A DNA stretch of 64,000 nt from Escherichia coli (GTDB taxonomy: Bacteria > Pseudomonadota > Gammaproteobacteria > Enterobacterales > Enterobacteriaceae), in assembly GCF_003334405.1 (NCBI RefSeq), contig NZ_QOWM01000005.1, one strand, 5' to 3'. Shown here piece after piece: positions 22,409 to 44,114 of the stretch. Below the pieces are notes generated by a model. That model did no database searches, had not been told where the DNA came from, and was given only the letters and a program-made list of their open reading frames with translations. The position numbers and the translations under genes were made by a program. Within the stretch, counting starts at the first letter, position 1. Every line of letters begins with the position of its first letter.

Positions 22409-23746
22409 TTAGTTTGGCAGCGTGCGATCTGGCGTCGTCACCGTACTGGCAGTTTGTGCCGTTGCACCCTGCGGCGCAGATTGCATCGGATGCGCAAGGA
22501 AGTAATTGCGCAGGCCTTTGTAAATGGCTTCTGCCAGCTGTTGTTGGTAATCGTCGCTCGCCAGCAAACGTTCTTCGCTGTTGTTGCTGATAAAACCGGT
22601 TTCGACCAGTACTGATGGGATATCCGGCGAGCGCAGAACGCCAAGGCTGGCGTGTTCTGGTCGACGTTTATGTATTTCGCCAATGCGTTGCAACTGACTG
22701 ATCATACTGGTCGCTACATCATACCCTACCCGCTGGGAATGACCGAACTGTAAATCCAGCACCGCCTGGCTTAAATAGGGGTCAGACTGACTGTTCGCCA
22801 GCACATCACCCGCCCCACCCAGCAGCTCCGACTGTTTCTCGTGCTGCTCCAGCCAGCTGGCCATTTCACTGTTGGCGCGACGGTTAGAGAGCACCCATAC
22901 GGAAGCGCCAGTCGCACTGCGGTTCGGTGCGGCATCAGCGTGAATCGACACGAGGAAATTGGCGTTTTGCTTACGTGCCACATCACTGCGCCCCATCACC
23001 GAGATAAAGTAATCCCCGTCACGGGTTAAAACGCCTTTAAACATCGGATCGTCATTGAGCAAAGTACGCAATTTACGCGCGATGGCGATGGTGACATTTT
23101 TCTCCCGCGTACCACCGGGGCCGATAGCGCCAGGGTCCTGACCGCCGTGTCCGGCATCAATAGCGATGATAATTTTATCGCCAGTGTTAGCCGTCGCGCG
23201 CGCTGCCGGACGCGTTACCGTATTACTGCTGATAACACCCGTAGTGCGGTTACTTTCCGTTTTAAACGGATTGCGCGCCGGTTCGCTGACGCGCGGTGCG
23301 ACAACCGCAGGCGTTTCAACGCGTTTCGCAACCACGGGCGGCGGAGGAGGCGGTGGCGGCACATCGGCGTTAATCGTAAAGACGACAGTGTAATTGCTGC
23401 CATTCTGCCGCTTCACCGCTTCGGTTTTACCGTTTTCGGTAAGATCGACCACCAGCCGTAGCGTTTGTGCATCTTTAGGCGTTCCAGAGCGAATCGCCTT
23501 CACCAGATTATTGCCGCTGAACAACAACGGCAGTCCCTGAATCACGCCCGTTTGTTTGATATCGAGCGCCACGGTGCGTTTGCTTTGATGGCTAAACGCA
23601 TAATCAGGATCGCCAATAAAACTCAACGTTATCCGCGCCTGTTGATTACCGTTAGAAACCTGAATATCAGAGAGCGTCGCGGCACCCACCGGCGTGCACA
23701 GCAGCAGCAGCGTCGCTACCAACCAATTTCTGATGCGATACATCAT
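22409..23746 (-). CDS. amiB: N-acetylmuramoyl-L-alanine amidase AmiB
   Basis: ORF 22409..23761 trimmed to [10 protein letters not shown]... (445 aa); signal peptide, poly-Pro linker, amidase_3 domain. Confidence 0.93.
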
Positions 23747-25745: not shown

Positions 25746-26883
25746 GTCAGAGCCCCTCGATCTCAATCAGTTAGCGCAAAAAATTAAACAGTGGGGGCTG
25801 GAACTGGGCTTTCAGCAGGTAGGTATTACCGATACCGATCTCAGCGAGTCCGAGCCCAAACTGCAAGCATGGCTGGACAAACAATACCACGGCGAAATGG
25901 ACTGGATGGCACGTCACGGTATGCTGCGCGCTCGCCCTCATGAGTTATTGCCCGGTACGCTGCGCGTGATCAGCGTGCGGATGAATTACCTTCCTGCTAA
26001 CGCCGCATTTGCCAGCACGCTGAAAAACCCCAAACTCGGCTATGTTAGCCGTTATGCGCTGGGCCGTGACTATCACAAACTTCTGCGCAACCGACTCAAA
26101 AAGCTGGGCGAGATGATTCAGCAACATTGTGTTTCGCTGAATTTTAGACCGTTTGTCGATTCTGCGCCTATTCTCGAGCGCCCGTTAGCTGAAAAAGCTG
26201 GGCTCGGCTGGACAGGTAAGCACTCACTTATCCTCAATCGCGAGGCCGGTTCGTTCTTCTTTTTAGGCGAATTGCTGGTCGATATTCCGCTGCCCGTGGA
26301 TCAACCAGTCGAGGAAGGATGCGGCAAATGCGTGGCCTGTATGACGATTTGCCCGACCGGTGCCATCGTCGAGCCATATACCGTCGATGCTCGCCGCTGT
26401 ATCTCTTATCTCACCATCGAACTTGAAGGGGCGATCCCGGAAGAGTTGCGACCGTTAATGGGAAACCGTATTTACGGTTGCGATGACTGCCAGCTTATCT
26501 GCCCGTGGAATCGCTATTCACAACTCACCACAGAAGAGGATTTCAGCCCGCGTAAGCCGCTACACGCACCGGAACTCATTGAGTTATTCGCCTGGAGCGA
26601 AGAGAAGTTTTTAAAAGTCACGGAAGGATCGGCGATTCGTCGTATTGGTCACCTGCGTTGGCTGCGTAATATCGCCGTAGCATTAGGCAATGCCCCTTGG
26701 GATGAAACGATTTTGACAGCGCTGGAAAGTCGTAAAGGTGAGCACCCACTTCTCGATGAGCACATAGCGTGGGCGATTGCGCAGCAAATAGAGAGACGAA
26801 ATGCGTGCATAGTCGAAGTGCAATTGCCGAAAAAACAGCGTCTGGTTCGGGTGATTGAAAAAGGGTTACCGCGTGACGCCTGA
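25744..26883 (+). CDS. queG: epoxyqueuosine reductase QueG (YjeS)
   Basis: ORF 25636..26883 trimmed to MSEPLDLNQLAQK... (379 aa); 4Fe-4S ferredoxin motif CGKCVACMTICP. Confidence 0.92.
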
Positions 26884-27132
26884 TTCATCCACAGCTTGTG
26901 AATAAAAATAAAAACGCATTGCAATTCAAGACGAATAAAATCGTCAAGTGATCGACTCGACAAAACGGAATCTTAATTTTTAACTTATCTATCAATAGGT
27001 TAAAAAAATACTATTCACCGTGCGAAGTTTCTTTGAAATTAAGATTACAGCCTGAGGCTGTGGATAACTCTGTTTACAAGAGTTTGTCAGAGACAACAAA
27101 AACCAGCAATAACGCATCGCGTCGCTGTGGAT

Positions 27133-42624: not shown

Positions 42625-42938
42625 TGAGTGCTGAGTTTCAGACCAATAATCCCCAATACGATTAACGCCAGACTCGCCAGGCGCATCGGGTTAGCGGACT
42701 CACCGAGCAGCACAATGCCGGTTATGGCCGCGCCGACTGCGCCAATACCCGTCCACACGGCATAAGCCGTCCCTACTGGTAACGATTTCATCGCCCAGGC
42801 AAGTAGCGCCATACTGACAATCATCGCCGTCACAGTAATAACACTCGGCGTCAAACGACTAAAGCCGTGGGTATATTTCAGGCCAACGGCCCATACCACT
42901 TCCAGCAGACCAGCAATAACTAAGATAATCCAGGACAT
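42621..42938 (-). CDS. gdx: SMR-family guanidinium exporter Gdx (SugE)
   Basis: ORF 42621..43088 trimmed to [26 protein letters not shown]... (105 aa, 4 TM helices). Confidence 0.93.
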
Positions 42939-42956
42939 ATCAGGCTCCGGAGAATT

Positions 42957-42999
42957 GGGGCCGTCCCCGGTGAAAAGAGGCGTTTGCAGGTCGTCCTGC
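42957..42999 (-). ncRNA. guanidine-II (mini-ykkC) riboswitch in the gdx 5' UTR
   Basis: minus-strand transcript contains two short hairpins with ACGR loops: GCAGG-ACGA-CCUGC and GGGG-ACGG-CCCC, about 15 nt apart, ending about 18 nt before the gdx AUG and next to its GGAG Shine-Dalgarno. Confidence 0.8.
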
Positions 43000-43069
43000 A
43001 AAGCTGATGGTTGAACGGATATTTTGCCAGGTGGCAGGGGAATTTCAACTATTACCTTTGTGACTATCG

Positions 43070-43108
43070 CAGAAAAAACAAACGGCACGACACAGCTGTC
43101 GTACCGTT
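43070..43108 (-). terminator. rho-independent terminator downstream of ecnB
   Basis: minus-strand hairpin ACGGUACGACAGCUGUGUCGUGCCGU followed by UUGUUUUUUC. Confidence 0.65.
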
Positions 43109-43113
43109 ATTGC

Positions 43114-43260
43114 TTATTGCTGCGCTTTCGTTGCTGCGCCAGAAATCGCGTTACCGCCATCAGAAATGTCTTCACCAACGCCACGCGTGGTGTTGCAGGC
43201 AGTTAATACTGTTGAAAGCACCAGAACAGAAAAGATCGCTGCAATTGTCTTCTTCACCAT
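43114..43260 (-). CDS. ecnB: entericidin B (small lipoprotein toxin)
   Basis: manual translation [48 protein letters not shown] (48 aa); below the ORF-track size cut-off. Confidence 0.9.
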
Positions 43261-43370
43261 AACGTCTTCCTTTTAGGTAATGTTATTTATGTTTGCCTAT
43301 AGCAAATTAATAATAGACAACATCGCCAAAAATGATGGGAATCTGATGATTTTTCGGAAGAGAAGAAAAA

Positions 43371-43496
43371 TTAGCTGGCAGCGCGAGAGATGGAGTTGCC
43401 GAGATGTTTGATGTCTTCGCCGAAACCGCGAGCGGTGTTACAGCCCGTGAGCAGCGTGCTGGCAAGCAAAACAAGAACGATAAGGCGTTTCATCAT
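43371..43496 (-). CDS. ecnA: entericidin A (small lipoprotein antidote)
   Basis: manual translation [41 protein letters not shown] (41 aa); below the ORF-track size cut-off. Confidence 0.9.
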
Positions 43497-43547
43497 CTCT
43501 GACCTGAATAAGTGATGGTGCAGCCTGCAGGCCGCACCACAACCGCA

Positions 43548-44114
43548 TTACTTCACGCGAGAGACGTATTCACCAGAGCGGGTATCCACTTTGATGACTT
43601 CGCCGATTTGTACAAACAGCGGAACTTTAACCACAGCGCCAGTAGACAGGGTAGCCGGTTTGCCACCAGTACCTGCGGTATCACCTTTCAGGCCCGGATC
43701 GGTATCAACGATTTCCAGTTCAACGAAGTTCGGCGGAGTAACGGAGATCGGCTGACCATTCCACAGAGTTACGATACACTCTGCCTGATCCAGCAGCCAT
43801 TTAGCGTTGTCACCAATTGCTTTTGCATCAGCAGACAGCTGCTCGAAAGTTTCGTTGTTCATGAAGTGCCAGAACTCACCGTCGTTGTACAGGTAAGTCA
43901 GGTTCATATCGACAACATCAGCGCCTTCAGCGGAATCAGTAGATTTGAAGGTTTTTTCTACGCGAGTACCGGTCAGCAGACGACGCAGTTTAACGCGAGC
44001 AAATGCCTGGCCTTTACCCGGTTTTACGAATTCACTCGCTTCAACCGCGTAAGGTTCGCCGTCTAACATGATTTTAAGACCAGCACGAAAATCGTTGCTA
44101 TAGTACGTTGCCAT
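43548..44114 (-). CDS. efp: translation elongation factor P
   Basis: 188-aa [27 protein letters not shown]... with the KPGKG loop carrying the modified lysine. Confidence 0.97.

Follow-up and report, generated by a model that had tools for sequence, protein, structure and literature searches.

Two short tandem open reading frames (ORFs) on the minus strand of a 64,000-nucleotide stretch of Escherichia coli DNA, hereafter the window, are almost certainly the chromosomal ecnA and ecnB genes, whose products are paralogous small lipoproteins of the entericidin family that would be exported, lipidated and sorted to the outer membrane. With regard to their function, we lean slightly towards EcnB being a dose-dependent, membrane-active envelope lipopeptide, with which its paralog EcnA competes or which it modulates. 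The genes are already known, having been described in 1998 and being annotated in all complete E. coli genomes, and as a discovery the locus is ordinary. A reading of the raw sequence recovered, with exact coordinates, two genuine genes of fewer than 50 amino acids that had been hidden by the 60-amino acid ORF cut-off. The two genes and their upstream neighbor are located as follows:

43371..43496, minus strand: ecnA coding sequence, 41 amino acids, ATG start; the ORF has the same coordinates as the RefSeq CDS ecnA
43114..43260, minus strand: ecnB coding sequence, 48 amino acids, ATG start; the ORF coincides with the RefSeq CDS ecnB
43548..44114, minus strand: 188-amino acid ORF upstream of ecnA (efp), from the ORF listing

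On the E. coli chromosome, the window extends from ulaG to cadA/dtpC, and the gene order at the locus in the RefSeq annotation is efp-ecnA-ecnB-sugE-blc-ampC, with 51 nt separating the efp stop codon from ecnA. The preliminary description, made from the sequence alone, had placed two tandem minus-strand genes of 41 and 48 amino acids here, and both are found exactly where it put them, matching the RefSeq coding sequences of the colinear K-12 record base for base (colinearity was checked). The surrounding 801 bp (42900-43700) share 100% identity with E. coli K-12 MG1655 and many other strains, while the ecn region is found in 5426/5426 complete E. coli genomes. The locus, its DNA, proteins and neighbors are thus the same as those of the K-12 entericidin locus ecnAB (EcnA: WP_000977757.1; EcnB: WP_000239596.1), for which the reference is reportedly Bishop et al. 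1998, J Mol Biol 280:583.

The entericidin identity proposed from the raw letters is likewise borne out by the family models. EcnA passes the NCBIfam EcnA equivalog model NF007319 (114.9 bits; cut-off: 86) and EcnB the corresponding EcnB model NF007487 (121.9 bits; cut-off: 94), while on the model of the other paralog they score 44.5 and 46.5 bits, respectively. As each protein falls below the cut-off of the other paralog's model, the A/B assignment of both is unambiguous. Furthermore, both contain the Pfam Entericidin EcnA/B family domain (PF08085; EcnA e-value: 7.6e-06; EcnB e-value: 5.9e-07), and a weak LPAM_1 match is also observed in the Pfam scan of EcnA. An additional Ibs_toxin match of EcnA (e-value: 2.5) is meaningless. 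A search for PDB relatives of EcnB yielded none even at an e-value of up to 1, and hence no relative with a solved structure. In RefSeq, the product of ecnA is named "lipoprotein antitoxin entericidin A" and that of ecnB "lipoprotein toxin entericidin B".

That both ORFs had been missed through a length cut-off is plausible, given that the default minimum of the ORF lister is 60 amino acids and that both are listed only at the minimum of 20 amino acids to which it was lowered here. Their coding status was assessed in 80 Enterobacterales loci fetched by means of an EF-P anchor, in which ORFs of 25-90 amino acids were searched with EcnA and EcnB. The pN/pS set comprised 46 EcnA-like and 54 EcnB-like genes adjoining efp, compared over the first 20 mature codons in ungapped windows anchored on the lipobox cysteine and with out-of-frame controls, a design adopted on account of one mis-anchored locus (L042) and the pseudogene of Citrobacter amalonaticus (L012). 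The mature part of EcnA shows a pN/pS of 0.257, against 1.13 and 1.68 in the other two frames (46 sequences), and that of EcnB 0.225, against 1.50 and 1.88 (54 sequences), these ratios being conservative as pS is near saturation (~0.7). Variation is concentrated in the third codon position, both in EcnA (47 vs 25 and 12) and in EcnB (48 vs 15 and 10), and all 100 sequences (46 A-like and 54 B-like) share the mature motif C-x4-G-x-G-x-D-x4-G-x2-I without variation. Both ORFs are under frame-specific purifying selection and are thus real protein-coding genes.

A translation signal, whose lack the preliminary description had named as the finding that would speak against the two genes, is on record for EcnB, which ranks with the small proteins that mass spectrometry (MS) most often detects in E. 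coli and, in minimal medium, reaches up to ~70,000 copies per cell (PMC12529367). The literature further describes very high copy numbers of EcnB in minimal medium as well as in stationary phase, and its level is 100-fold higher in a clpP mutant (PMC12529367), which is consistent with RpoS control. EcnA is never mentioned in PMC12529367 and neither protein in PMC10117744, while no direct EcnA translation data were found in the accessible small-protein and ribosome-profiling literature. Chance ORFs in the non-coding efp-sugE intergenic region, a reading that could draw on the length of both ORFs, under the usual gene-calling thresholds, and on the weak Shine-Dalgarno sequence of ecnA, are refuted by the curated family models that both proteins pass, the MS detection of EcnB and the pN/pS values for the 46 and 54 orthologs, while the annotation in all complete E. 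coli genomes also speaks against them, so that their probability is negligible.

Both proteins have the architecture of small lipoproteins. The N-termini are rich in lysine and arginine and are followed by a hydrophobic core and a lipobox. In EcnA, the signal peptide comprises residues 1-18 and the lipobox is L16-T-G-C19 (Cys19 codon: 43442..43440), leaving a mature lipopeptide of 23 amino acids, while the EcnB signal peptide comprises residues 1-21, with the lipobox L19-T-A-C22 (Cys22 codon: 43197..43195) and a mature lipopeptide of 27 amino acids. The LTGC and LTAC lipoboxes and the paralogy noted previously are both evident here, with EcnA and EcnB sharing 24/44 identical residues (55%; e-value: 4e-14). 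A lipoprotein signal peptide with a lipobox cysteine, as in other members of the family, is thus present in both, as is a short mature peptide with the conserved C-N-T-x-R-G-x-G-x-D core, amphipathic character and a predicted helix. The maximum 18-residue helical hydrophobic moment is 0.68 in EcnA, reached by 0/2000 shuffles, and 0.49 in EcnB, reached by 0.9% of shuffles, and these computed values are consistent with surface-active amphipathic helices.

The Lgt/LspA/Lnt lipoprotein pathway and the Lol "+2 rule" are established lipoprotein biology and form the basis of the biogenesis proposed here. The EcnA and EcnB precursors would be exported by the Sec system, receive a diacylglyceryl group on Cys19 or Cys22, be cleaved by signal peptidase II and subsequently be N-acylated. 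As residue +2 is Asn and not Asp, both lipoproteins are predicted to be routed to the outer membrane, and the end products would be two peptides held by a lipid anchor, 23 and 27 residues long, whose helical periodicity is strongly amphipathic. Lipidation of EcnB at C22 is curated in UniProt, according to PMC12529367, while top-down MS in the same study shows only truncated EcnB without the lipidated residue. For EcnA, no direct evidence of lipidation was found in the accessible literature.

Several putative regulatory features can be observed around the two genes:

43081..43108, minus strand: intrinsic terminator serving ecnB and any joint ecnAB transcript, with a 12-bp stem, a 4-nt loop and a U-tract
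43261..43370, minus strand: AT-rich ecnA-ecnB spacer of 110 nt (31% G+C), containing the ecnB promoter and 5′ untranslated region (sequence; PMC5389655)
43316..43310, minus strand: candidate sigma-S-type -10 element C-TATTAT, placed here provisionally
43304..43296, minus strand: -10-like TGCTATAGG, matching the published sigma38 pause motif TGcTATA(A/C)T, likewise a putative placement
43272..43266, minus strand: ecnB Shine-Dalgarno sequence AAGGAAG, 5 nt before the ATG
43497..43506, minus strand: weak ecnA Shine-Dalgarno region, CAGGTCAGAG directly before ATGATG, as read from the sequence
43511..43544, minus strand: G+C-rich 11-bp hairpin without a U-tract in the 51-nt efp-ecnA gap, from the RNA fold

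A terminator after ecnB had been noted, and a 12-bp stem followed by a U-tract indeed lies at 43108..43081, 6 nt after the ecnB stop codon. Its stem has 12 pairs, six of which are G-C, and is followed by UGUUUUUU, with the tail TGTTTTTTCT; the fold has a free energy of -21.4 kcal/mol (z = -5.89), and 0/200 shuffled sequences are as stable. The hairpin between efp and ecnA (-22.6 kcal/mol; z = -2.64) is located right after the efp stop codon and 14 nt before the ecnA ATG (43496), and was not scored as terminator-like by the scan. It could be a partial terminator or a stabilizer of the efp transcript. Since a stable hairpin lacking a U-tract is all that this gap contains, ecnA may be partially co-transcribed with efp, and the hairpin suggests partial read-through or a coupling of the two genes through RNA stability.

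The ecnB gene has a promoter of its own in the spacer, with the AGGA core of its Shine-Dalgarno sequence at 43271..43268, 7 nt before the ATG. In vitro, the sigma38 form of RNA polymerase uses this promoter ("ecnB P"), whereas the sigma70 enzyme does so poorly; a sigma38-dependent promoter-proximal pause at +17/+18 requires a -10-like motif within the initially transcribed region, with an overlapping OmpR site (PMC5389655). A generic sigma70 scan detected no site in the ecnA-ecnB spacer, its only hit (43048..43021) being located upstream of sugE, which agrees with the published sigma38 dependence of ecnB. The literature further describes negative control of ecnB by OmpR, repression of its mRNA by the sRNA MicA (PMC3551931), and sigma-S-dependent induction of ecnB, without induction of ecnA, upon inhibition of LolCDE (PMC5105897).

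Beyond the entericidin genes, three further features of the window were annotated:

42956..43002, minus strand: guanidine-II (mini-ykkC) riboswitch before sugE/gdx (Rfam: 50.4 bits; gathering cut-off: 32)
26866..26919, minus strand: yjeV, a 17-amino acid "hypothetical protein" (MRFYFYSQAVDESGVTR) between queG and three tRNA-Gly genes (RefSeq)
57187..57259, plus strand: tRNA-Phe gene (pheU), followed by a frameshifted integrase fragment at about 57460..57620

The riboswitch is located immediately downstream of the ecnB terminator, with the annotated ATG of sugE/gdx at 42938, and explains two features of this region. A second "terminator-like" hit (43002..42983) is not a terminator, being the first hairpin of the riboswitch with its ACGA loop, and a 155-amino acid sugE ORF called from a GTG at 43088 by the longest-ORF rule is spurious, as it spans the riboswitch; the annotated protein has 105 amino acids.

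The suggestion of the preliminary description that more tiny proteins may be hidden in the window is weakly borne out, as yjeV is the sole annotated CDS of fewer than 60 amino acids besides ecnA and ecnB in the colinear RefSeq annotation (window 1-63700); that there are others is speculative. The literature on yjeV concerns the DnaA-inactivating locus datA. DnaA-box matches are located at 26897..26905, within the yjeV ORF, and at 27059..27067, and the scan of the whole window returned three matches, without enrichment over shuffled sequences. The matches are thus only anecdotally consistent with datA, and yjeV may be either a real protein or a mere ORF inside datA.

The window is 99.99% identical to the K-12 MG1655 record from position 22898 onward, with four differences, while 73 substitutions are found in its left 21 kb (24..7334; also 18127 and 20879), with clusters in ulaG-ulaR-yjfP (24..2797) and in yjfC (5821..5944). 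Over its first 8 kb, the window is 100% identical to various wild and livestock isolates. The left-end substitutions and the identity to these isolates point to a strain that resembles K-12 without being K-12, in which the left end is a recombined mosaic. The integrase fragment after pheU is also annotated in the K-12 record (L001 34561..34720), and together they resemble a vestigial island integration site.

The distribution of the two genes was surveyed in the 80 Enterobacterales efp loci over 3 kb on each side of efp, where in distant genera an A-like or B-like call denotes the higher-scoring E. coli paralog. At least one entericidin gene is present within ~500 bp after efp in 61/80 loci, and the window locus has this enterobacterial position, directly downstream of efp and on the same strand. 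Both genes are found directly downstream of efp in 41 of the loci, including that of C. amalonaticus L012 with its frame-broken ecnA, while 19/80 loci have neither, one of which (L044) extends only 527 bp downstream of efp. The Morganellaceae genera and several others lack an entericidin gene after efp.

An ecnB-like gene alone is present within 3 kb of efp in 14/80 loci (13 plus L056), and an ecnA-like gene alone follows efp in 6/80 (L062, L063, L075, L079, L080 and L081; Tatumella, Rosenbergiella and Budvicia). Five of the loci with ecnB only belong to Enterobacteriaceae (L011, L014, L016, L027 and L037) and have the gene at about 3741..3939, encoding an EcnB which shares 89.6-95.7% amino acid identity with that of E. 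coli; the remainder (L041, L045, L048, L050, L051, L054, L055, L056 and L078) include Yersinia, Brenneria, Erwinia persicina and Mixta. The gap between efp and ecnB is ~180 bp in the ecnB-only loci, and no ecnA remnant was detected there by tblastn. Among the species with ecnB only are also Escherichia sp. ESNIH1, Kluyvera genomosp. 1, Superficieibacter electus and Enterobacter asburiae INSAq146. A second entericidin gene could be present elsewhere in these genomes. In C. amalonaticus S646 (L012), the reading frame of ecnA (3746..3931) is broken immediately behind the CNTARG motif (…CNTARGLNILVTPFLTQPADRFPLS); the neighboring ecnB (4020..4166) is intact, and the locus represents either a natural "toxin without antidote" or a sequencing error.

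A search of 72,556 plasmid records gave matches in 13. Several of these are records of 0.37-5.4 Mb in size, and among the plasmid matches listed six (H24, H25, H26, H27, H28 and H30) carry efp too. The large records and the presence of efp suggest that most of the plasmid matches are chromosomal sequence filed as plasmid, and the entericidin pair is essentially absent from plasmids.

The historical "antidote/toxin" function of the entericidins is said to go back to Bishop et al. 1998. In calling the genes an antidote/toxin pair, the preliminary description is in line with this annotated function, but the phyletic pattern fits an addiction module poorly. Overproduction of EcnB is reported to lyse cells and ecnA in cis to counteract this effect (relayed in PMC7296081 and bioRxiv 10.1101/505081), and a secreted EcnB homolog of Enterobacter C6-6 is reportedly lytic to Flavobacterium (relayed in PMC7296081). 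The antidote/toxin function has, however, been contested, and the Keio deletion of ecnA is viable (PMC7296081). We give a little better than an even chance to the lipopeptide with a modulating paralog, and prefer it over an addiction-type module, which we consider improbable.

Somewhat short of an even chance, in our view, is that each of the two is a small envelope lipoprotein acting independently of the other, with a non-toxic role in, for example, envelope or osmotic stress, outer membrane vesicles (OMVs) or at the cell surface; the lysis would then be an artefact of overexpression, as is common with small membrane-active lipoproteins. The very high native abundance of EcnB (PMC12529367) argues for such a role, as does its membership of sigma-S, OmpR and MicA envelope-stress regulons (PMC5389655, PMC3551931, PMC5105897). 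Furthermore, Atu8019 of Agrobacterium, a homolog exposed at the surface and associated with OMVs, has no lytic activity, the OMVs of several pathogens reportedly contain EcnB homologs (PMC7296081), and an ecnA mutant of Xanthomonas citri shows biofilm and stress phenotypes and not death (bioRxiv 10.1101/505081), while in the survey either paralog has been retained independently in different lineages. Some functional coupling is, however, suggested by the relayed antagonism of EcnB lysis by EcnA and by the conserved tandem arrangement in most Enterobacteriaceae. A further, tentative proposal, to which we likewise give less than an even chance, is that the two genes do not form a toxin-antitoxin system of any kind: EcnB would be an outer-membrane lipopeptide, abundant and under sigma-S control, whose role is structural or related to stress, and EcnA a dispensable paralog, gained and lost independently by different lineages.

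A classical toxin-antitoxin module, in which EcnB would be a stationary-phase bacteriolytic toxin and EcnA a dedicated antidote needed for survival, is in our estimation unlikely. It agrees with the RefSeq and NCBIfam product names, the relayed lysis upon overproduction and its counteraction by ecnA in cis, the lytic Enterobacter C6-6 homolog, and the tandem arrangement in 41/80 Enterobacterales loci. In an addiction module, the toxin gene would always occur with its cognate antitoxin and plasmid or mobile-element carriage would be frequent, whereas 14 of the surveyed loci have an ecnB-like gene without ecnA after efp, C. amalonaticus keeps ecnB beside a broken ecnA, and the 13/72,556 plasmid records show that the pair is essentially not plasmid-borne. 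Furthermore, the ~70,000 copies of EcnB are found in growing cultures, in a study whose text does not include EcnA (PMC12529367), LolCDE inhibition induces ecnB without ecnA (PMC5105897), the ecnA deletion is viable (PMC7296081), and the separate ecnB promoter (PMC5389655) implies that EcnA and EcnB are not stoichiometrically coupled.

In experiments on ampC amplification, the amplicon boundaries are unusually often located at ecnB or in the ecnA/ecnB spacer, such that the amplicons carry sugE-blc-ampC without ecnA, and the authors invoke selection for sugE (PMC12625342). Selection against an over-dosage of ecnB may be an alternative explanation.

As in the window, the ecn locus of Citrobacter freundii (L029) has the order efp-ecnA-ecnB-...-sugE-blc and encodes EcnA-like and EcnB-like lipoproteins. 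In C. freundii M-21, however, a divergent 197-amino acid ORF (4048..4641, minus strand), which is absent from E. coli, is located between ecnB and sugE, while in the window the ecnB-sugE gap is only 175 bp and holds the terminator and the guanidine-II riboswitch. This ORF may correspond to the LuxR-type regulator gene ecnR, a label taken from a gene annotated beside ecnB in a Salmonella plasmid match, the product name of which is "LuxR C-terminal-related transcriptional regulator".

Small membrane toxins of chromosomal toxin-antitoxin loci are short hydrophobic or amphipathic peptides which damage the envelope on overproduction, and the entericidins are alike in this respect. They differ in that the entericidins would be Sec-exported and lipid-anchored in the periplasm or outer membrane, and in that the proposed antidote is a paralogous protein. 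Outside the Enterobacterales, Atu8019 of Agrobacterium and the X. citri ecnAB products are also small PF08085 lipoproteins with a mature part of ~25-32 amino acids (PMC7296081; bioRxiv 10.1101/505081). Atu8019, however, is encoded by a single gene, in addition to its surface exposure, association with OMVs and lack of lytic activity (PMC7296081), while the X. citri pair is under quorum-sensing control (bioRxiv 10.1101/505081), and the functions of both appear to differ from those of the lysis module proposed for E. coli.

The occurrence of orphan ecnB and ecnA genes, the absence of the pair from plasmids and the published abundance of EcnB add weight to the existing doubts about a toxin-antitoxin function of the entericidins. 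If the pair is not a toxin-antitoxin system, the "toxin" and "antitoxin" product names carried across enterobacterial annotations would be misleading.
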